Part shown: piece after piece, positions 6,558 through 37,599 of the stretch
How positions within the stretch are numbered: the first letter of the stretch is position 1
Layout: every line of letters starts with the position of its first letter
Assembly: GCA_963422385.1 (NCBI GenBank)
Contig: OY729432.1
Coordinates: forward strand, 1,989,136-2,053,135
Source of the DNA: Candidatus Binatia bacterium
Lineage (GTDB): Bacteria > Desulfobacterota > Binatia > UBA9968 > JAJDTQ01
Direction of reading: 5' to 3'
Length of the DNA stretch: 64,000 nucleotides
Program-made: the position numbers and the translations under genes
The notes under the pieces: generated by a model
Database searches by the model: none
Told to the model about the DNA's origin: nothing
The model's input: the letters and a program-made list of their open reading frames with translations, nothing else

Positions 6558-8213
6558 ATGGAGTCGGTGAGGATCGTTCCCCTCGGAGGCCTGGGAGAAT
6601 TCGGCTGCAACATGCTGGCAGTGGAGTGGGAGGACTCGGTTATCGCCGTGGACTGCGGCGTCATGTTCCCCGGCCCCGAGCTCCTGGGCATCGATCTGGT
6701 CATTCCGGACATCAGCTACCTGATGGAGCAGGGCAGGATTCCCCGGGCCATCATTCTGACTCATGCCCACGAGGACCACATCGGCGCCTTGCCCTATATC
6801 CTGCGGCGTTTCCAGGCGCCGGTGTACGGCACCCGTCTGACTCTGGGGTTCCTGCGTCACAAATTGCGGGAGCACAGGCTCGAAGAGTCCACGGAACTGG
6901 TGGAAATCACGCCCGGGAAGCGGTTTTCGGTGGGGCCTTTCACGATCGAGGGGATTCCCGTAACCCACAGCCTGGTTGACTGCATCGCTTTGGCCATCGA
7001 GACGCCCATCGGCGTCATTCTTCACACCGGGGACTTCAAGATCGACAACACGCCCATGGCCGGCCAAAGCTTCGACTTTCACCGCTTTGCGGCCTACGGC
7101 GACAAGGGCGTCCTGCTGCTGCTTTCGGACTCCACCAACGTCGAGCGCACGGGCAGTACGCCCTCCGAGCGTGTTGTCGGCGAGGGTCTCCGGGGGATCT
7201 TCAACTCCAGTCCGGGACGCATCTTCATCGCGACGTTCGCCTCCCACATCCCGCGCATTCAGCAGGTTGCGGAGCTGGCCACCGACTTCGGGCGCAAGCT
7301 GGTCCTCAGCGGACGGAGCATCATCAACAACACGGGCATAGCGGCGGACCTGGGCTGTCTCCGCCTGCCGGATGACGTCATGACCGACAGCCGGGGCTGG
7401 CAGGACGTGGCCGACGACCATCTCTGTTTCCTCACCACCGGAAGCCAGGGGGAGCCCCTCTCCGTCCTGCATCGCGTGGCCTTCGACGAGCATCGATCCA
7501 TCAGGATTCAGCCCGGGGACACGGTGGTGCTCTCGGCGAGGTTCATCCCGGGAAACGAGAAGATCATCAGCAGCCTGATCAATCATCTCTACCGGCGGGG
7601 CGCCCAGGTCCACTACGAGCGCACGTCGGAGATACACGTCTCGGGGCACGCCAGCCAGGAAGAGCTGAAGACCATGATCCAACTCACCCGCCCGCGGTAC
7701 TTCGTGCCCGTGCACGGAGAGTTCCGCCAGCTCTGCAAGCACATCGAGCTCGCGCGCGCGGTGGGCATACCCTCGGACCACTGTTTCCTCATGGAGAACG
7801 GCGACGCGCTGGAGATCAACGGCCCGGACGCGGTGCGTGTGGACCCGGTGGCAACCGGCAAGGTCTTCGTCGATGGCAAGGGGACCGGCGACGTGGAAGA
7901 CATTGTCATACGGGACCGCCGGCATCTGAGCGAGGACGGGCTGGTGGTGGTGGCCATGGCGGTGCACCAGCGAACCGGCGAGGTGGCCGCCGGCCCGGAT
8001 TTGCTGGCCCGGGGGTTCATGCGTTCGGAGGAAGAGGACGACGTTCTGGGCGCGGCCCGGGATTCATTGCGGGAGTACATCGACGGCTGCGGCGTGGAGA
8101 GGCGTACCGACTCCGCCCAGCTCAAGGAAGGCATACGGCGGTCGCTGCGAAAGTTCTTCGAGAAGAGGCTGCACCGCCGGCCGGTGATCCTGCCTTATAT
8201 CATGGAGATGTAG
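6558..8213 (+). CDS. rnj: Ribonuclease J
   Basis: PLGGLGEFG, THAHEDHIG, TGSQGEP, HVSGHAS, PVHGE motifs. Confidence 0.96.
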   Translation: MESVRIVPLGGLGEFGCNMLAVEWEDSVIAVDCGVMFPGPELLGIDLVIPDISYLMEQGRIPRAIILTHAHEDHIGALPYILRRFQAPVYGTRLTLGFLRHKLREHRLEESTELVEITPGKRFSVGPFTIEGIPVTHSLVDCIALAIETPIGVILHTGDFKIDNTPMAGQSFDFHRFAAYGDKGVLLLLSDSTNVERTGSTPSERVVGEGLRGIFNSSPGRIFIATFASHIPRIQQVAELATDFGRKLVLSGRSIINNTGIAADLGCLRLPDDVMTDSRGWQDVADDHLCFLTTGSQGEPLSVLHRVAFDEHRSIRIQPGDTVVLSARFIPGNEKIISSLINHLYRRGAQVHYERTSEIHVSGHASQEELKTMIQLTRPRYFVPVHGEFRQLCKHIELARAVGIPSDHCFLMENGDALEINGPDAVRVDPVATGKVFVDGKGTGDVEDIVIRDRRHLSEDGLVVVAMAVHQRTGEVAAGPDLLARGFMRSEEEDDVLGAARDSLREYIDGCGVERRTDSAQLKEGIRRSLRKFFEKRLHRRPVILPYIMEM

Positions 8214-28874: not shown

Positions 28875-29429
28875 CTACGCTCGCGCAATGCGACAGGTTC
28901 TCCAACTCTTCGACCAGTGTTCATCGGACTGAACATGGCCCGCGCGAACGCTCTTGCAGACGTTGAGATGGAACTCGCTGGCTGGAAATGGCCGCGCCAA
29001 CCTGATCACTACGCCTTCCCTGGCGCCGCCTAGCGCAGACGGCTCCGTGTGAGCATGGCTGACGAAGTCCCGGATCTCGCTCACTGACCGAAACTCACCC
29101 TCATACAGAACCGGGACCAACGGGATCTCCCGTTCCTCGGCGTGGCTCACGAGTGCCTGGAACGAAGAGAACGAGCCGTCCGCGAAACGAAGCGCAAAGG
29201 CATAAAAGGTCTCGTTCTCCGACACGGGGTCGTACTCGATGCTGTGAACACCGTAGATGTCCTCACCGTAGAGAAAGATGCCCGGCTCCGTGACCTTCCA
29301 CGCATGGTGCTTCCTGACCATCGCCATCCACTTGCCGATGGAGGGCGCGGAGACGCCACGCCCGTACATCTCACCCCTGTGGAGGAGCGTATTGCCGCCG
29401 TCGAGCTTCTCGGTGACGACGTCCGTCAA
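28875..29429 (-). pseudogene. ATP-dependent RNA ligase family protein, 5'-truncated
   Basis: VTEKLDGGN (KxDG), YGE, FYAF, REGVVIR; reading frame begins only a few codons before motif I. Confidence 0.75.
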
Positions 29430-30361
29430 CGTTGTTTGGGGCTGTTCTGATGCGTTTGCACACGGGCTTGGTAGAGGTTGGTCCCAGACTTGATTTCCTC
29501 AATCCGAAACGAGTGGATCAGACCCAGTTCCCCTAGCCAATGGGCAACTATTTCCTGGAACTTTGTACTCTTGCGTCTGCCCCCTGGGGGTTTCAACTTT
29601 TCGCCGCCTGCGGTAGCTGCCAGAATGGCATCGACGGTGCGTTCACCGCGTGGCCCCACGCCATCGGGGCTGGCCCCAGACCAGCCGTACTGGCGTTGCG
29701 GATACTCTCGGAGTGGGCCGAGATAGAATATCCTGTCCATCAATGCTTCGTACTCGGTTTCGAAGTCGCTCAGAAGACTCGTGTTTTGATAGTAGGTCCG
29801 GGCTTGGTCGGGAAAGAGGTGGGTTTTGACTGGACCCGGCAGATCTCCCGGTCGCCCTCGATTACGACGGAACTTGAACGGAGGACGGCCTTCTGCCGAG
29901 TTGAGCTCGAACACACTGGGGTTCTCCGCGTTGGGTTCGATACCGAAATCGGTGTCGGAAAACCTGTATTTCATATGGCGTGCCGAGAGACGCGAGTCTT
30001 CCAATCCTACCTGGGCGCTCAATTGCAAACGGCTTCCCTCGTATTTTGCGTTCCTTCGATGGTCCTCGAGTTTGAGCGGTTCCGGGAGCTTCCAATCCAG
30101 CGTCCAGGCGATGTTGTCCGTCACCTTGCCTTGATGCACAATGGCTTCGTAGGTGCCCAGATTTACCAGTTGGTTCGGTCCTCCGAAGTCCAGCACGCGA
30201 CCCCGGTCCGTCGCATTTTTCGTCTGCTTGAGCAAGAGCAGAAACTGAAGCACGCTGCTCTTGCCGGAACTGCTCGCGCCGAAAAGGCCGGTGACCTTGC
30301 CGAATTGCATATCCAGCTTGCGCCACGCCTTGAAGTTGGTGACCTCAAGTCTGTCCAACAT
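29426..30361 (-). pseudogene. AAA_21/DUF3696-type ATPase, 3'-truncated
   Basis: NFKAW, GLFGASSSGKSS, YLGPLREYP; ends before the DVGFG signature/Walker B region. Confidence 0.78.
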
Positions 30362-30384: not shown

Positions 30385-30453
30385 ACCACCCTCGTTTCGC
30401 CCTGAGACAGCGCCCTTCGACTTCGCTTCGCTACGCTCAGGGCGAACGGTGGT
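30385..30453. repeat. Inverted-repeat element (REP/MITE-like)
   Basis: TTCGCCCTGAG (30396-30406) / CTCAGGGCGAA (30436-30446) with outer ACCACC/GGTGGT. Confidence 0.6.
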
Positions 30454-30525: not shown

Positions 30526-31812
30526 CTACCCGGCATCCCCCTCCGCTTTCAAAGAGTCCAGCGCCTCCTGAACCAGCTTGCGCCGCAGCGCCTTCTCCTC
30601 GTCCGCGGGGAGGCTCGCGTCTCCGGCCACGTGGACGATGCCGTGTCCCAGCACGACGCGGTTGGAGCCCACCATCTTGGCGATGGGCAGGGCGGAGGTC
30701 ATCTGCACGACGGGGACGCCGGCCTTTTCGAGCTCGGTGGTGATCGCAGCGCCGCTGCGAGTGCTGGTGCCTCACGTGGATGTGAGGATCACGGCATCGA
30801 CCCCCTCGCGCTTCACCTTCTCCGCCATCTCCCGGCCCAGCCGGCGGGTGTTGGACAGGGGATTGGACAGGCCGGAGGTGGAGAGGAACTCGCCGTGTAT
30901 CCTGCCCACCGTGCCGTCCTTCTCCAGTTGTCTCAGGGCGTCGAGGGGCACCAGGCGGTCGGGGTCGGCTTGAACGAAGCGGGGGTCATAACCCCCGTGG
31001 GAGATCTCGTAGTCCTCGCCCGCGAGGTCGTCGGCGCCGGAGATGTCGTAGGCGCCCCAGCGGGTGGCGGCCATCCCCTCGATGGCGTCCGGATTGCCCT
31101 TGGGCACCAGCCCGCCGTCGGTGATGAGCATGACGGTGGCCTTGGAGATGTCGTCCACGCCCCTGGGCCTGGCCACGGGCTCGAAGGAGGTGACGGGCAT
31201 CTCGGTGTCGAACGGCTGGTTCCGGACCTTGGCCAGCATCATGTCCACGAGACGCTCGGCCGAGGACTTGCCGACGAACTGATCCCGTATCAGCCCTCGG
31301 GTCAGGTAGCCCTCTTCGCTTGGCAGGCCGATGGCCTCTCCGGCCGCCAATTTACGGGCCAGCCCGGCCATGCGTTGGACGACCTGCTTCATGTTGGCCG
31401 CATTCCGCCCGGAGTCGATGATGTAGAGGCCTTCCCGGTAGAGGTCCACCCCCGGGTTCTCCTCGTGCATGCCGGTGAGGGCGGGGATGCCGAGCTCGGT
31501 CCGTACCGCGCTGCACAGGGCGCCGGCGGCCATGCCGTAGCGGCCGGCGTCGAAGCACGGGCCGGCCACGAACAGGTCCGCCCGGGCGCTCCGGACATGC
31601 TCCAGGACCGCGGCCGTCAGTTCCTCCTGATGCTCGACGGCGTGGTTGTCGCCGCAGATCAGGGTCCTGACGACGGTGGCCCCTTCAGCGCAGGTCTGCT
31701 CCAGCAGACGGCCCGGGCCGACGGCGTTCCCGACCGCCCTGAGCGGGTTCCCGGCTTGCTCCTCACCGCCGATTCCTCCGAAGAACTGGTTGAGGTAGTG
31801 AACGATTCTCAT
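30526..31812 (-). CDS. grdB: Glycine/sarcosine/betaine reductase component B selenoprotein (GrdB/F/H family); Sec at TGA 30772-30774
   Basis: MRIVHYLNQFFGGIGGEE, AGPCFDAGRYG, HGGYD, DPDRLVPLD, VILTST-TGA-GTSTRSG. The frame continues with the family C-terminus to the stop at 30526. Symbol marks family only. Confidence 0.9.
30744..30771 (-). promoter_or_regulatory. Putative bacterial SECIS element
   Basis: UGA + 11 nt + stem UCGCAGC / loop GGC / GCUGCGA. Confidence 0.7.
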
Positions 31813-31852
31813 GGGTTGCCTCCCTGTTCGAGACTCGCGGCACGCGCGATGG

Positions 31853-31880
31853 GCGCGGGCGGGCTTAAACCTGCTCCTAC
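31853..31880. repeat. GTAG-type REP-like palindrome
   Basis: Minus strand reads GTAGGAGCAGGTTTAAGCCCGCCCGCGC. Confidence 0.6.
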
Positions 31881-31915
31881 AACGGGTCATCGCGCGCTGT
31901 CGCGCTGCCGGACAT

Positions 31916-33196
31916 CTAATAGACCATGGCCCGCAGCCGCGACGCGCCTTGCTGGTTGGTGACGCCCGCCACGTTCATGGCGCCCAGCTCGCGGACTCCG
32001 GCCAGAAGCTCGCCGATGGCCGGGTTTGCCGCGATCACCCGCCCGGCGGGCGGTACCTGCCACCGGGTGTCGTTGCCTCCGCCGTAGACGATGGCGTTGA
32101 CCTCGGGGAAATTGAACAGCAGGGCCGACTCCACCCGGCGGTCCCGCGACACGTCCGAGACCATCACCGCGGTGCGGATCCCCTGGGACTCCAGCAGCCG
32201 CGCGGACTCCGCCAGATCCGCATGGGGTACGCCGCCGCCGTATTTGGTCAGCACCGCGGCGTCGGCGTTCAGTGCCCACCGGACCAGGGACGCGGCGGTG
32301 CGACAGTTCCGGTCCCGGTCGGCGTTGTCCGATCCGGCGACGCTCGCCACCGTGCCGACGAAGTTCAGCTCCCCGGCGTGGTGCCTGCGATAAAGCTCGG
32401 TGATGATGGGATGGTTCTGGTAGCCGTAGGTCTCCGCGCCTCCCATGGAGGTGTAGTAGGAGGTCACCAAGGCGCCGTCCAGCCACTCGTCCGGATGCAG
32501 CAGCACCGGCAGCATCCCGGTGGTGTTCAGCCCGTAGAGCACCGGCTCGTCCAGCTCCGCCTGCCGTTGGCGGGAGAAGATCTGTCCCACGTACGCCACC
32601 CGGGGCAGTCCCGGGCGGCCCGGCGGTCCGGGGTTGACAGGCTCGAAAGTGCGGCTTTCGGCGGGTGCGTGCGGAGCCGCGGCTTGGGCGAGATGGACTG
32701 CTGTCCTGAGTCCGGCCACCCGCTTGACCCTCTGGGCCGCGTGGCCTTCCTTGCCCGGCGCCATACGGGGTATGAGGACGAGGTGGTGCAGCTTGGAGTA
32801 CCCTGAGCCCTCCGCCGCCGGTCCGGTCATCTCGAGGACGCGACCGATGGAGCCGCGCGATCCGCCCGCGGCGTGCTCGTCCAGGACCGTGACCGCCATG
32901 CCGGACAGCACGTGGGTGACGCCCATGCCTGCGGTCAGGGGAGGGCCCAGGATACCCGGGAAGTCGGGACTGGCGCCGGAAGCCTTGGCCCTGGGCTCGA
33001 TGATGTCGAACACCGGCCCGGCCCGGCAGTCCTCACCCGGAGCGACGAACTCGAAGGTAACGTCGCTGAGCGCTCCGTCTTCGAGCAACAGCCCGCGAAG
33101 CTGATCCGCATCGATGTCGAGGGTCGTTCCGTCGAGCCGGGTGGAAGGGCCGAACCGAAGGGCTCGCACCGGGTGGTACGCCAGTGTCAGATTCAC
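31916..33196 (-). CDS. Reductase component B alpha/beta subunit (GrdE/G/I-like)
   Basis: DIIEPRAK, GVTHVLSG, LPRVAYV, LLHPDEWLDGALV, TYGYQNHPII, ELNFVG, GGGVPHAD; GGAGG RBS before GTG. Confidence 0.88.
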   Translation of the reverse strand: MNLTLAYHPVRALRFGPSTRLDGTTLDIDADQLRGLLLEDGALSDVTFEFVAPGEDCRAGPVFDIIEPRAKASGASPDFPGILGPPLTAGMGVTHVLSGMAVTVLDEHAAGGSRGSIGRVLEMTGPAAEGSGYSKLHHLVLIPRMAPGKEGHAAQRVKRVAGLRTAVHLAQAAAPHAPAESRTFEPVNPGPPGRPGLPRVAYVGQIFSRQRQAELDEPVLYGLNTTGMLPVLLHPDEWLDGALVTSYYTSMGGAETYGYQNHPIITELYRRHHAGELNFVGTVASVAGSDNADRDRNCRTAASLVRWALNADAAVLTKYGGGVPHADLAESARLLESQGIRTAVMVSDVSRDRRVESALLFNFPEVNAIVYGGGNDTRWQVPPAGRVIAANPAIGELLAGVRELGAMNVAGVTNQQGASRLRAMVY

Positions 33197-33303: not shown

Positions 33304-34821
33304 CTATCCTCGCCTCGGTGACGGAGAGCCGAGATGACTGGCGTAGGCGGCCAGTGCGGTGCCGTACTCTGCCGCGTGGACCCCGTGGTCCGTGAAGTCG
33401 CCGTGATGACACTGGAGTGCCCACAGAGCGGCGTCGCAATGCTCCGGCTTCCCGGTGAGGTCGTGGAGCTTCAGGAAGAAGCGCGCCGCGACGCCGTTTT
33501 CGGTGACCCGTGTCAGGGGATATTGAAGGAATGCGGGTCCCTTCTCGGCAATGTCGAAGAAGCCCCCTGCCGAATTTTTCAGGCTGGCCCGGATGAATCC
33601 CGCTAGGGCTTCGGCGCGTTCGAGAAAGGCCGGTTCACCGGTGGCTTGGAACCCATCCGCCAGGGCGCGTCCCGTGAGAGCCTGGTCCGTGAGGAGTCCC
33701 CGCAACCGGGCCGCGTCGTCGAAGTAGTGGGCGATGCCGCGGGAGCCGTCCCAGCAACGCTCCAGCAGGAACCGCAGTGTTTCCAGGGAGCGTTCCTCGC
33801 AGTCTTTGCGTCCCAGGGTCCCGGCGGCTCGCAGACAGGCGGAAACCGTGCGGGCATTGGCGTCGGTGTACATCCAGGGATCGGTCATGGAGAACATGCC
33901 CCGGCTCTCGTGGAGCATGGATCCCGCGGGCGTGTCCCGGCCTGGTGTGATGCGGATGTAGTCGCGGCAGCCGTGGAAGTACGGCTCGGCGGGGTCGCGG
34001 AACCCACGGTCCAGGTAGTCCAGAATCTCCTCGGCCAGCTCCCTGAAGAACGACTCCCCGGTCAGTTCGAACACGTGCAGGGCGTTGTCCAGCAGGCCGG
34101 CGTGGTCGGACAGCAGTTTCTCGTGGTGAGGCTCGCTCCAGTCCGGTTTCGACGAGTAACGAAAGAACCCGCCCTCCGGGTCATGGGTCTTGCTCTGGTG
34201 CATGCGGTGGAGGGTTATGCGGACGTGGTTGAGGTAACGCGCGTCGCCGGTGGCCGCATGACGCTGCAACAGGAATTCGTTGGCCTCGCAGTGGGGAAAC
34301 TTTCGCTCCGTTTCGTAGCCGCCGTGAACGGGATCCGCCAGGTTCCGGATGATCTCGGCGATTTCGTCCACCGCCTCCGGCCGAACGGTGGTCACGCGAG
34401 GTGGTGGCGCTACCGGAGGGCCCGGGGCCGCGGCGGGCTCGCCTTCCTGATAACCGACGTGAAGTCGCACCAGGACGTCGCTGAAGTCCCGGGGAGACAG
34501 GTAGTTGACGCTCGCCAGAAAATCGCCCTCGGCGCTCAGGAACACGATGGTGGGCCAGCCGTTCCGGTTGTAGCGCACGTCCAGGTCCGGCCGCTGGGCG
34601 TCCTCCACCCGGACCGGAACGAAGTACGCGTTCAGCAATGCCACGTTCTCGGTGTCGGAGAAGGTGGTCTCATCCATGCGTTGGCAAATGCCGCACCAGA
34701 ACGCGCCCAGGTAGAGCATGACCGGTTTCTTCTCGGCGCGCGCGCGGTCGAAGGCCGCCGTTCCCCAATCCGACCAGTGGATTCGGTGGGCGCCGTTGGG
34801 GTTGGGGGAGAAGCGAAACAT
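33304..34821 (-). CDS. DUF255/YyaL-type thioredoxin-domain protein with helical barrel
   Basis: WCGICQRMDETTF, RPDLDVRY..GWPT, KFP, GGFFRYS..PDWSEPHHEKLL. Start could be 34860. Confidence 0.88.
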   Translation of the reverse strand: MFRFSPNPNGAHRIHWSDWGTAAFDRARAEKKPVMLYLGAFWCGICQRMDETTFSDTENVALLNAYFVPVRVEDAQRPDLDVRYNRNGWPTIVFLSAEGDFLASVNYLSPRDFSDVLVRLHVGYQEGEPAAAPGPPVAPPPRVTTVRPEAVDEIAEIIRNLADPVHGGYETERKFPHCEANEFLLQRHAATGDARYLNHVRITLHRMHQSKTHDPEGGFFRYSSKPDWSEPHHEKLLSDHAGLLDNALHVFELTGESFFRELAEEILDYLDRGFRDPAEPYFHGCRDYIRITPGRDTPAGSMLHESRGMFSMTDPWMYTDANARTVSACLRAAGTLGRKDCEERSLETLRFLLERCWDGSRGIAHYFDDAARLRGLLTDQALTGRALADGFQATGEPAFLERAEALAGFIRASLKNSAGGFFDIAEKGPAFLQYPLTRVTENGVAARFFLKLHDLTGKPEHCDAALWALQCHHGDFTDHGVHAAEYGTALAAYASHLGSPSPRRG

Positions 34822-35032: not shown

Positions 35033-36403
35033 ATGGCTTTTTCACGGATCGAATTGCCCGCGACGGTATCGCGCGAACAGACCCTTCGCGACTCCGAAGC
35101 GGTGCTGGCCATGCCCGACATTCCGGTCAGTGTCGAGGAGGACATCGTCCGGATCGAGGCGTTGGGAATGGAATGGGACCTGGGCATGATGGTCTACCAG
35201 CCTCGGGACGAGGCCCGGATCCCATGCGGCGCCGACGGCAGGAAGGTAGGAATCTTTCTGCTCCACGGTGGCTCGGGCGACTACAAGACCATGGAACGGG
35301 TTGCGTTGCTGGCCGCGGGCAAGTTCGGCTTCAAGGTCTTGAGCGGGACGTTTCCCGGCCGCTTCTGTTTCCCCGAGCCGAGCCGCGACTGGCCGGATGA
35401 CACCATTCACGGGGACGGGAGTGTCCGGACACCCATCTGGAAGAGGGGAGAGCTGATTGCCCGTGATGAATACGACGTCGCCCGGGACCTCTCCATGCGG
35501 CCGCGTTACGGCGCCCGAACCGTTGCCAGGGCCAAGCCCGAAACCAACTTCTATTACCGCATGGCTGCGTGGCCGGTGGCCTTTGAAGAGGGCATGAAAG
35601 AGGCCATGCGCAGGCATCTGCCCGAAGGGGCGTATTCGATCTACGGGGAAGGCCATTCCACCGGCGGCCCCTTCGTCTCCATGCTGTCCCAGCGCGTGCC
35701 GAACTTTGCGGGCGTCGTCGCCACCGAGCATACGCCTTTCGGCTACGTCGGAGCCTTGAGGGACAACTGGAGCGGCTCTTTGGGAAAGGTTCCCGGTTTC
35801 GAGCGCGTGAGCACCGACGACGCGGTCCGGAGCGACCCCTTCAACGAGCTGTACATCCGCACTTGGCGCGATCTGGCGCGCTATGCCGGTCCCGAGGCCC
35901 TGGGGCAGCAGGGCCCGGTGGCGTTGATGCAACTGCCCATGCTGATGGAAGAGGTTCTCGACGACTGGGACCGGTCCCGGTCGCGGCCGCAGTTCAAGGC
36001 GGAATACGTGATCACCCACGACATCGCGGCTTCGTTGACGGAGGCCGCGAAGGTCAGCGCCCGGCGCCTCGGCATGAACGGCGCCGAAACCGAAGCGCTT
36101 GTGAAGCGTTACCGGGGTTATCCGCGCGAGTTGTCGGGACCGGACGCACCGCCGCTGCCGCCGTTCCTGTTCATCATCACCAAGGACAGCCGGGACCACA
36201 GCCCGGAGGTCTACAAGGAGGTCGTCCTGCCCTCCTTCGCGGCCATGCGTCCCGCGCCGAAGACCCATCTGACGCACTTCGCGGCCGGCGTGCACAGCTT
36301 CTGGAAAGCCGAAGAAGGACTGCCGCAGGGCGTGGCGCCGGTCGCCGTCAAGCTGTGGAGCGACGCCATCACGGGCGGCTACTTCGCGGCCGCTGGAGTG
36401 TGA
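35033..36403 (+). CDS. Uncharacterised alpha/beta-hydrolase-fold protein
   Basis: LLHGGSGD, GHSTGG nucleophile elbow, late GVHS His; strong GC3 codon bias. Confidence 0.7.
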   Translation: MAFSRIELPATVSREQTLRDSEAVLAMPDIPVSVEEDIVRIEALGMEWDLGMMVYQPRDEARIPCGADGRKVGIFLLHGGSGDYKTMERVALLAAGKFGFKVLSGTFPGRFCFPEPSRDWPDDTIHGDGSVRTPIWKRGELIARDEYDVARDLSMRPRYGARTVARAKPETNFYYRMAAWPVAFEEGMKEAMRRHLPEGAYSIYGEGHSTGGPFVSMLSQRVPNFAGVVATEHTPFGYVGALRDNWSGSLGKVPGFERVSTDDAVRSDPFNELYIRTWRDLARYAGPEALGQQGPVALMQLPMLMEEVLDDWDRSRSRPQFKAEYVITHDIAASLTEAAKVSARRLGMNGAETEALVKRYRGYPRELSGPDAPPLPPFLFIITKDSRDHSPEVYKEVVLPSFAAMRPAPKTHLTHFAAGVHSFWKAEEGLPQGVAPVAVKLWSDAITGGYFAAAGV

Positions 36404-36453
36404 GGCCCTGGCCCCGACTCTCTCCGGGGAAAGCGGGCTCAAGCCGAGGTTGT

Positions 36454-37599
36454 ATGATGAAGTTTTCCTTTTTCATGATGCCGATACACGATCCGTCGGA
36501 GAATCCGGCCTTGGCGTACGACCGGGACATCTCGCTGATCCACTACGCGGAAGAGATGGACTTCGACGAGTTCTTCATCGGCGAGCACCATTCGGGCGGT
36601 TGGGAAAACATGCCGGCCCCCGAGCTGGCGCTGGCCAAGGCCGCGGCTCACGCCAAGCGCATACGCCTGGGCACCTCGGTTATCAACACGCCGTTCCACC
36701 ACCCGTTCCACGTGGCCGAGCGCATGGCGTTCCTTGACCACCTTACGCGCGGTCGCGCGATCCTGGGCGTGGGCCCAAGTGCGCTGGTCACCGACAAGAA
36801 GCTGTTCGGCCTCAACAACGAGATGCTCCATCCCATGCTGACCGAATCGGTGGAAGTCATCGTGCGGCTGCTGGAGTCTCCCGAACCTGTCGATCATCAC
36901 GGCCGGTTCTGGAACTTCGAGGGCATGCGGCTTCAGCTTCGCTCGTATCAGCAGCCGCGTATGCCCTTGGCCATCGCCTCCTCGGGAAGCGCATCGAGTC
37001 TGGAGCTGGCGGGCCGGCACGAGATGATGCTGCTCTCACCCGCGGGCAAGAACCGCTGGCGCAACCCCGCCCATGCCGAGCAGTGGAAGTCCGTCGAAGC
37101 CGCCGCGGCCGAGGCCGGCAAGACCGCCAGCCGGGACAACTGGCGTATCGCCACGAGCGTCTATCTGGCGGAGACGCGGGAGCAGGCCTGGGCCGACGTG
37201 GAGGCGGGCATTGCCCGGGATATGCAGTACTTCTTCGCCATCGGCCTCAAGACGCCCTACGAGTCCTATCCCAACCAGCCGGCGTCGGAGATCACGCCCC
37301 GCTCGGCCGCGGACCGGCGGGACTGGATCATCGGTACTCCGGACGACGCCATCCGCCACATCGAGCGGCTGCAGCAGGAGACCGGCGGCTTTGGCGGCCT
37401 GATGCTCACCACCCACGAGTGGACCCGCAGCCACAAGCTTCGCCATTCCCTGGAGCTCTTCGCCCGCTACGTCATGCCGCATTTCCGCGGCCACACCTGG
37501 AGTTTCAGGGACGAGTGGGACCGCCTGCGCCAAGCCGCGGCCGGGAGCGGCGTGAAGCTGCCGGACAACGGCCGTCCCAGCAACCTCGCCAACAGCTAG
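36454..37599 (+). CDS. LLM-class flavin-dependent oxidoreductase
   Basis: FIGEHHSGG, IRLGTSV, HPFHVAERMAFLDHLTRGR, IIGTPDD, LELFARYVMPHF. Confidence 0.93.
   Translation: MMKFSFFMMPIHDPSENPALAYDRDISLIHYAEEMDFDEFFIGEHHSGGWENMPAPELALAKAAAHAKRIRLGTSVINTPFHHPFHVAERMAFLDHLTRGRAILGVGPSALVTDKKLFGLNNEMLHPMLTESVEVIVRLLESPEPVDHHGRFWNFEGMRLQLRSYQQPRMPLAIASSGSASSLELAGRHEMMLLSPAGKNRWRNPAHAEQWKSVEAAAAEAGKTASRDNWRIATSVYLAETREQAWADVEAGIARDMQYFFAIGLKTPYESYPNQPASEITPRSAADRRDWIIGTPDDAIRHIERLQQETGGFGGLMLTTHEWTRSHKLRHSLELFARYVMPHFRGHTWSFRDEWDRLRQAAAGSGVKLPDNGRPSNLANS

Follow-up and report, generated by a model that had tools for sequence, protein, structure and literature searches.

Two questions are raised by a locus of a Candidatus Binatia bacterium: whether an in-frame UGA ends a gene or is decoded as selenocysteine (Sec), and what kind of enzyme would carry Sec where the usual neighbouring cysteines are serines. 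The locus lies in a stretch of 64,000 nucleotides of contig OY729432.1, hereafter the window, to which positions refer unless the host contig C1 is named. A preliminary description, made from the letters alone, had proposed that a gene split at TGA 30772-30774 in the list of open reading frames (ORFs) is a single GrdB-family selenoprotein gene with a non-canonical site. Our analysis supports this view and places the gene in a conserved branch of the family, in which the motif U-x-x-C-x-x-C is replaced by U-x-x-S-x-x-S. The answer to the first question rests on three features, the last of which is a candidate selenocysteine insertion sequence (SECIS):

30526..31812, minus strand: GrdB-family selenoprotein gene, 428 codons including one UGA, then a TAG stop (translated with TGA as U)
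30772..30774, minus strand: selenocysteine-read UGA (U347) in S-T-U-G-T-S-T-R-S-G, assigned by orthologue and family conservation and by the Sec machinery
30744..30760, minus strand: SECIS-like hairpin, core 30759..30754 paired with 30750..30745, loop GGN at 30753..30751

The gene starts at an ATG (31812..31810, minus strand), 8 nt downstream of a GGGAGG sequence, and stops at a TAG (30528..30526, minus strand), its sole in-frame TGA being at 30774..30772. Genetic code table 11 divides the frame at this codon, as had been observed before, into a 372-codon ORF (30772..31890) and a 60-aa remnant (30526..30708). Translation with TGA as U gives one frame of 428 codons that continues to 30526, in line with the original proposal, and around U347 it reads DAVILTSTUGTSTRSGAAITTELEKAGVPVV. 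Both serine codons after U347 are AGC, so the reported replacement of both downstream cysteines was confirmed on the minus strand. The protein (P0001) matched Pfam PF07355 (GRDB) over residues 1-346 with 438.4 bits (cut-off 22) and NCBIfam TIGR01918, the glycine/betaine/sarcosine/D-proline reductase selenoprotein B subfamily, with 482.3 bits (cut-off 65.45). As the latter match covers residues 2-424, the profile spans the UGA. The scores for the models of individual enzymes were all under their cut-offs: 442.5 bits for the GrdB equivalog TIGR01917 (602.2), 469.8 for the sarcosine reductase GrdF model NF040794 (800) and 432.4 for the betaine reductase GrdH model NF040795 (775). The window gene is a genuine GrdB-family selenoprotein gene, encoding the substrate-handling subunit of a glycine-reductase-type enzyme, and the family assignment made from the letters alone was correct.

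The machinery for Sec insertion is complete in the host, whose genome is a single contig of 3.95 Mb (98.3% complete). The genes selA (583 bits), selB (383 bits) and selD (372 bits) all score above curated cut-offs and are adjacent, forming an operon at 1.124-1.128 Mb, and a tRNA-Sec was detected with 77 bits (gathering score 47). The host selD (contig C1, 1127288-1128214, plus strand, outside the window) itself has one in-frame TGA and encodes a Sec-containing SelD.

Orthologues were searched in six frames in 40 relatives, comprising 24 genomes of the same genus and 16 from two sister families. They were found in 24/24 and 9/16 genomes, respectively, and each full-length match, aligned from residue 1 to ~427, contained exactly one TGA. 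The UGA and the sequence STUGTSTRSGAAI were kept in all 30 orthologue loci that were fetched, down to 69% protein identity, and the 20 residues past the UGA were identical in 25 of them. Across the wider family the UGA falls on the Sec column (STUG) in 108/108 full-length loci. The ratio of nonsynonymous to synonymous substitution rates (dN/dS) points the same way, with a median pairwise value in the clade of 0.132 after the UGA (81 codons) versus 0.152 before it (Nei-Gojobori method; 1473/1770 pairs kept, the rest dropped for saturated or very low dS). RNA-library contigs from relatives ~90-94% identical bridge the UGA, which is weak evidence. Two metatranscriptome runs hold ~5% of the sampled words, in contigs from 85-99% identical relatives and possibly with DNA included, and so give no proof that this particular gene is expressed or read through.

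A true stop would leave a truncated product of 346 residues, followed by a decaying remnant or a separate small gene. Gene callers do cut at the UGA, the 120 best database relatives are, with few exceptions, 346 aa long, and table 11 splits the frame. This reading is nevertheless already contradicted by the purifying selection downstream (dN/dS 0.13), the identity of the 20 residues past the UGA among orthologues, a covarying hairpin at SECIS distance, the complete Sec machinery and the position of the UGA on the family Sec column, and we see next to no chance that it is correct. The preliminary description had staked its proposal on sel genes in the genome, U or C at this column in homologues and selection downstream; all of these were found. 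Four database relatives of 774-798 aa (P0139, P0151, P0161 and P0230) carry the 346 GrdB-type N-terminal residues at their C-terminal end (~430-790), which suggests fused GrdE-GrdB genes likewise cut at the UGA. Orthologues from three metagenome-assembled genomes (MAGs) are damaged: L085 has lost the Sec-codon stretch with a change of frame (~7017-7021), L086 has a frameshift near its 3' end and L083 a garbled stretch in its interior. Either faulty assembly or genuine decay may account for this damage.

How unusual is the serine-containing site? The motif was surveyed in the 30 orthologue loci, in a second paralogue of the host and in 80 loci obtained by scanning species-representative genomes. 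A total of 109 full-length read-through sequences were aligned, leaving out L069 (partial) and L085 (broken at the Sec region). UxxSxxS was found in 60 sequences, from Candidatus Binatia, MAGs labelled delta proteobacteria or Thermodesulfobacteriota, Dehalococcoidia and SAR202; UxxCxxC in 39, from Bacillota and Synergistota; and UxxSxxC in seven, from Rokubacteria, Methylomirabilia, Anaerolineales and Myxococcota-labelled MAGs. Single sequences had UxxSxxG (Planctomycetota), UxxGxxC (one MAG, L114) and UxxCxxS (the host's own second paralogue). Serine thus occupies both positions in all 60 Binatia and Dehalococcoidia/SAR202 sequences, and the proposed check on conservation of U/C-x-x-S-x-x-S came out in favour of a clade trait. 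All 19 further Bacillota loci had UxxCxxC, including five true GrdH above the 775-bit cut-off; with the 39 canonical sequences they agree with the earlier statement that STUGTCTRC is the canonical motif. UxxCxxC is the conserved GrdB/F/H motif in excerpts of two published accounts (PMC6778437; PMC13188914), the first of which treats a copy lacking it as a likely pseudogene; at the corresponding positions the window gene reads U-G-T-S-T-R-S.

In a maximum-likelihood tree of 92 rows, from which three frameshifted or over-long rows and rows at least 90% identical to a kept one were omitted, the UxxSxxS sequences form one clade, with a support of 100 in the Shimodaira-Hasegawa-like approximate likelihood ratio test (SH-aLRT). 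This clade is nested in a 36-row UxxS clade (support 99), which sits among UxxC sequences; GrdH falls elsewhere. The nested position indicates that the serines are a derived state, acquired stepwise and stably inherited. The site is therefore a conserved departure from STUGTCTRC, as had been claimed, but it is less unprecedented than the claim implied, since the serine at +3 is common to a larger group that includes the fluoroacetate reductase subunit FarB. A search of the published literature, with supplements outside its scope, found no description of the UxxSxxS clade, and the main text of the Binatota genome paper contains none of the terms 'selen', 'betaine' or 'glycine reductase'.

The host's second GrdB-family selenoprotein (contig C1, 3809122-3810450, plus strand, outside the window) is very divergent, being 37% identical, and has one TGA, in the motif S-T-U-G-T-C-S-R-S-G. 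It is followed by a GrdE-family partner at 3810474-3811733. Most genomes of the genus contain orthologues of this second paralogue and a third paralogue group (~45% identical) that is absent from the host.

The hairpin lies 11 nt past the UGA and is composed of UCGCAGC (30760..30754), a GGC loop (30753..30751) and GCUGCGA (30750..30744). The 7-bp hairpin described earlier is present, but its conserved core is 6 bp. The six inner pairs (CGCAGC/GCUGCG) are invariant in 30/30 orthologues, with variation in the third loop base and the flanking synonymous sites, and of 85 distinct sequences from across the whole GrdB family, 32 show no pairing at the position of the outer U-A pair (30760/30744). 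The loop, GGN, contains G as stated, and the AGC codon of the second serine sits in the 5' arm, so the pairing of a serine codon within the stem also stands.

The same 85 sequences revealed covariation at two pairs. Pair 24-34 links the third base of the Arg352 codon to the first base of codon 356; 45 sequences have C-G here and 40 have U-A, and none is unpaired. Pair 25-33, which joins the first base of codon 353 to the third base of the Ala355 codon, is U-A in 45, A-U in 38, G-C in one and U-G in one, again never unpaired. The covariation score was 0.312, compared with a mean of 0.118 for shuffled alignments (0/500 shuffles as high) and 0.012-0.099 for slid controls, so that the check for covariation suggested in the preliminary description gave a positive answer. 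The codon and the stem change together: Cys353 (UGC) goes with GCA, Ser353 (AGC) with GCU and Gly353 (GGG or GGC) with GCC, the glycine case being seen in one Planctomycetota sequence and again in FarB. Variation in the stem mostly follows clades, and the C-G/U-A switch recurs within at least three groups. The compensatory pairs imply that the Cys-to-Ser change at +6 came with a synonymous change that compensates for it in the RNA signal for Sec insertion. By its pattern of substitution the hairpin behaves as a family-wide SECIS element, common to canonical grdB. An Rfam scan of 14 kb around the gene (E≤10) returned chance-level matches alone, with no SECIS family among them.

The serines are accompanied by other changes of cysteine, which we numbered on P0001 and compared among the UxxSxxS (n=60), canonical UxxCxxC (n=39) and UxxSxxC (n=7) groups. 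Cys53 is shared by the family (57/60, 39/39 and 7/7, respectively). Cys96 is found in 0/60, 36/39 and 6/7, and Cys372 in 0/60 (replaced by Thr), 39/39 and 2/7 (0.29). Conversely, Cys86 is present in 60/60 sequences of the clade versus 0/39 and 0/7 in the other groups; it lies inside the family-invariant loop AGP-x-F-x-AGRYG, which in the clade reads AGP-C-F-x-AGRYG. On these alignments the clade appears to have lost Cys96 and Cys372 and gained Cys86. In an AlphaFold2 model of the protein (mean predicted local distance difference test score, pLDDT, 89.4), strand 340-344 is followed by helix 348-363, with U347 at the N-terminus of the helix, and Cys86 lies at the end of strand 80-87. Judging from this topology, Cys86 may be near Sec347. 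A PDB sequence search with P0001 gave no relative, and Foldseek comparison of the model with the PDB returned generic two-domain Rossmann or periplasmic-binding-protein-like folds (template modelling score, TM, ~0.2) with no solved GrdB-family structure.

The second question, what the enzyme does, also depends on its genomic partners. Two neighbouring genes are relevant:

31916..33196 (start approximate), minus strand: GrdE-family partner, second subunit of protein B, without the Asn-Cys pyruvoyl site (PF09338, 247 bits)
33304..34821, minus strand: DUF255/thioredoxin-like protein with a WCGIC motif and an alpha/alpha-barrel-like C-terminal part (Thioredox_DsbH (DUF255), 78 bits; Thioredoxin_7)

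The partner lies directly upstream of the GrdB-like gene, and its best NCBIfam matches are GrdG (177 bits, cut-off 780) and FarE (139 bits, cut-off 675). Canonical partners read DGAIVSGN|CVSACDK, with both cysteines in 32/32, whereas those of the clade read DGAxVxSYxxSMGGAETY, with cysteine in 0/57 at either column. The canonical Cys column is occupied by Tyr, His, Trp or Ser, and two residues before it the clade partners have Ser in 56/57 and Cys in 1/57. The partners of true GrdH also lack Asn-Cys (5/5, reading SGSFMP). A third GrdE-family gene of the host (PF09338, 298 bits; contig C1, 986920-988095, plus strand, outside the window) had no GrdB-family gene detected beside it.

One GrdA was found in the host (contig C1, 488208-488648; one TGA, motif C-F-V-U, PF04723 with 201 bits), adjoined by GrdC (NF040746, 497 bits, cut-off 450); both are ~1.5 Mb from the window gene. 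GrdD (NF040747) gave no match at E≤0.001 in the single-contig host genome, while Bacillota controls were above the cut-off in 5/5, so that a protein C with both GrdC and GrdD was not recovered from the host. Elsewhere in the clade, grdC and grdA are beside the pair in 9 of 32 loci with 6-kb flanks (one Binatia and eight Dehalococcoidia/SAR202), and in three sister-family genomes (G025, G029 and G036) grdA is just upstream of the pair, with grdC there too. In a set of 41 related genomes, GrdA is present in 33/34 that are positive for the GrdB family and absent from 6/7 negatives.

The DUF255 gene, whose start was set at MFRFSPNPN, is immediately upstream of the pair on the same strand. Within the 6-kb flanks it was found beside the pair in 12/32 clade loci versus 0/48 other loci, in Binatia, one SAR202 locus and one Dehalococcoidia locus, and AFWCxxCQRMD is kept in 12/12 of the linked homologues. 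The flanks of two Dehalococcoidia/SAR202 loci contained a flavin adenine dinucleotide (FAD)-dependent oxidoreductase (DAO), a major facilitator superfamily (MFS) transporter, an amidohydrolase and a gene of the phosphoenolpyruvate (PEP)-mutase family, none of which pointed to a substrate.

Among known systems, the closest likeness is to FarB/FarE, the fluoroacetate reductase of Cloacibacillus porcorum MFA1. FarB is also a GrdB-family Sec subunit with S-T-U-G-T-S, serine at +3 and no CxxC, and with Thr at the Cys372 column. According to excerpts of its description (PMC10838667), FarE, like GrdI, has neither of the two cysteines needed for pyruvoyl processing and is unprocessed; the pair is proposed to feed GrdA, and grdA is upregulated on fluoroacetate. 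In eight loci whose FarE passes the curated cut-off NF053623, the FarB motif was STUGTSSRGG in five and STUGTSSRCG in three. FarB differs from the clade in having Gly or Cys at +6, in keeping Cys96 and in having Gly at position 86, and is 38-43% identical to P0001. The window partner falls far below the FarE equivalog NF053623 (139 versus 675 bits). The far operon has a radical S-adenosylmethionine (SAM) gene and an antiporter (PMC10838667), neither of which was seen at the window locus, and FarB/FarE hosts are anaerobic Synergistota. A tree of 51 rows (IQ-TREE) contained one split (support 99) between all 28 UxxS rows, FarB included, and all 23 UxxC/UxxG rows; a FastTree analysis of 99 rows agreed. 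A Sec subunit without flanking cysteines and with an unprocessed partner is, by the precedent of FarB/FarE, a kind already known, and the resemblance is a likeness in possible working mode and not orthology.

The betaine reductase GrdH/GrdI (NF040795) depends on GrdA and GrdC. It shares with the window pair a Sec subunit and a GrdE-family partner without Asn-Cys, but GrdH has STUGTCTRCGA in 5/5 and lies on the UxxC side of the tree, and P0001 remains well short of its model (432 bits versus 775). Clostridial GrdB/GrdE (GrdABCDE plus thioredoxin, TIGR01917) have in common with the window the family, the Sec column, the position of the SECIS hairpin, a GrdE-family gene directly upstream and, in the host genome, GrdA and GrdC. 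They differ from it by the UxxSxxS site, the loss of Cys96 and Cys372, the gain of Cys86, the missing SGN|CVSAC and the failure to find GrdD. The host phylum is described as aerobic methylotrophs in an excerpt of PMC8262859, unlike the clostridial hosts of GrdB. Judged by its sequences, the Binatia/Dehalococcoidia clade is a separate, uncharacterised branch, marked by the +6 serine, Cys86, no Cys96, no GrdD found and linkage to DUF255.

Taken together, these observations lead us to favour, with some reservation, a module for alpha-substituted acetates that works without a Schiff base, hands a Se-carboxymethyl group to GrdA and has other thiols in place of the lost cysteines. In a glycine-reductase-type system, the GrdB-like protein would be the Sec subunit of the 'protein B' module that activates the substrate, its UGA being decoded through the SECIS hairpin that overlaps the active-site codons. 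By analogy with GrdH/GrdI and FarB/FarE, the module would need no pyruvoyl Schiff base, so that its substrate may be an alpha-substituted acetate with a directly leaving substituent (a quaternary amine such as that of glycine betaine, a halide or similar) instead of glycine; the clade enzyme probably acts on something other than glycine. Sec347, at its helix N-terminus, would attack the alpha-carbon, and the resulting Se-carboxymethyl intermediate would pass to the single GrdA, a CxxU selenoprotein, and be handled by GrdC. As GrdD was not found, the last step, formation of acetyl phosphate, may differ. The protective or resolving role of the lost cysteines could be taken by Cys53, found across the family, by Cys86, peculiar to the clade, or by the linked CxxC DUF255 protein. 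The earlier suggestion of different chemistry or an external resolving partner is thus given a direction by the partner lacking the pyruvoyl cysteine, the failure to find GrdD, Cys86 and the linked DUF255 gene, all of which are correlations.

One alternative is a protein B of the ordinary glycine or sarcosine reductase type, in which the pyruvoyl group comes from the serine of V-x-S-Y and the Cys-to-Ser changes are neutral or an adaptation to oxygen. In other pyruvoyl enzymes both Ser and Cys can undergo the acyl shift that makes such groups, and the clade partners have a nearly invariant serine two residues before the canonical Cys column. P0001 also scores about equally for GrdF (470), GrdB (442) and GrdH (432), and GrdA and GrdC are present in the host. 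We nevertheless judge this quite improbable: the three scores are far under their cut-offs (800, 602 and 775), the Asn-Cys site and the second cysteine (SAC) are gone in 57/57 partners, GrdD was not found in the host genome, and the clade is on the side of the tree with FarB, whose partner is reported as unprocessed. Another alternative dispenses with GrdA and GrdC, the GrdE-like/GrdB-like pair and DUF255 forming a self-contained reductase in which CxxC resolves the selenium adduct directly. The three genes are contiguous on one strand in the genus while GrdA and GrdC are 1.5 Mb away, the DUF255 CxxC is invariant in the linked homologues, and the linkage extends from Binatia to SAR202 and Dehalococcoidia loci and to none outside the clade. 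Against this, grdA and grdC adjoin the pair in other clade loci and in the sister families, GrdA co-occurs with the family in nearly all positive relatives, and DUF255 is not near most Dehalococcoidia copies; we give this version little credence.

Several points weigh against the module that we favour. The nearly invariant serine two residues upstream makes a serine-derived pyruvoyl group possible. GrdH keeps UxxCxxC despite its unprocessed partner, so loss of the pyruvoyl site alone cannot explain loss of the cysteines. The counts of GrdA and GrdB co-occurrence come from kin and are non-independent, DUF255 adjoins the pair in only 12 of the 32 clade loci and was not seen within 6 kb of most Dehalococcoidia copies, and the long branch of FarB (1.27) makes its placement within the UxxS side uncertain. 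The substrate and products proposed for the clade are guesses from sequence.

Other elements surround the locus. A hairpin-forming element of 43 nt (window 30410-30452), just downstream of the GrdB-like gene, has seven copies in the genome with at most six mismatches. Its summed depth in metagenome and metatranscriptome contigs is very high, with loose ends on both sides in several records, and it looks like a small family of repeats resembling repetitive extragenic palindromic (REP) sequences or terminators. Directly downstream (window 28875-30361, minus strand) are an AAA ATPase, with weak AAA_15/AAA_21 and MADS3 antiphage ATPase matches, and an RNA-ligase-family protein, possibly forming a small pair of defence type; synteny of the ATPase is kept in 14 of the 30 loci examined in the genus. 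On the other side, a luciferase-like monooxygenase (PF00296, 158 bits; ~36457-37599, plus strand) is divergent from the DUF255, GrdE-like and GrdB-like genes. Two minus-strand ORFs upstream of DUF255 (35042..36442 and 36439..37020) matched nothing in Pfam or NCBIfam and nothing convincingly in the ESM Atlas; given the monooxygenase on the plus strand, at least 36439..37020 is probably a shadow ORF.

The call of a selenoprotein is in itself routine. What is noteworthy is that three hallmarks have been lost throughout a clade of presumably aerobic lineages, and that the Cys-to-Ser change is coupled to the SECIS. GrdB-type enzymes are textbook enzymes of anaerobes, and the branch described here, which lacks the three features by which they are recognized (UxxCxxC, the pyruvoyl cysteine and GrdD), is a conserved and selected Sec branch in all 24 sampled genomes of the Binatia genus and in marine SAR202 and other Dehalococcoidia, routinely truncated in databases. 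Copies without UxxCxxC can therefore be under strong selection, in contrast to the pseudogene call in the excerpt of PMC6778437. The locus also offers a clean natural example of an active-site Cys replaced by Ser (or Gly), with a synonymous change in the Sec-directing RNA stem to compensate for it. A bolder version, which we regard as doubtful, is that a widespread lineage of soil and ocean bacteria, presumably exposed to oxygen (Binatia, SAR202 and other Dehalococcoidia), rebuilt the active site around a lone Sec nucleophile, with the relocated Cys86 as resolving thiol, a dedicated CxxC DUF255 reductant and no GrdD, to split an abundant alpha-substituted acetate at a C-N+, C-halogen or C-S+ bond without forming acetyl phosphate. 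If true, glycine betaine, for example, would yield trimethylamine usable by these methylotrophs, by a reductive route not known outside strict anaerobes. Knowledge of the substrate would test the role of the cysteines next to Sec, and the cycling of carbon and nitrogen (or halogen) in soils and oceans would gain a selenium-dependent reductive step.

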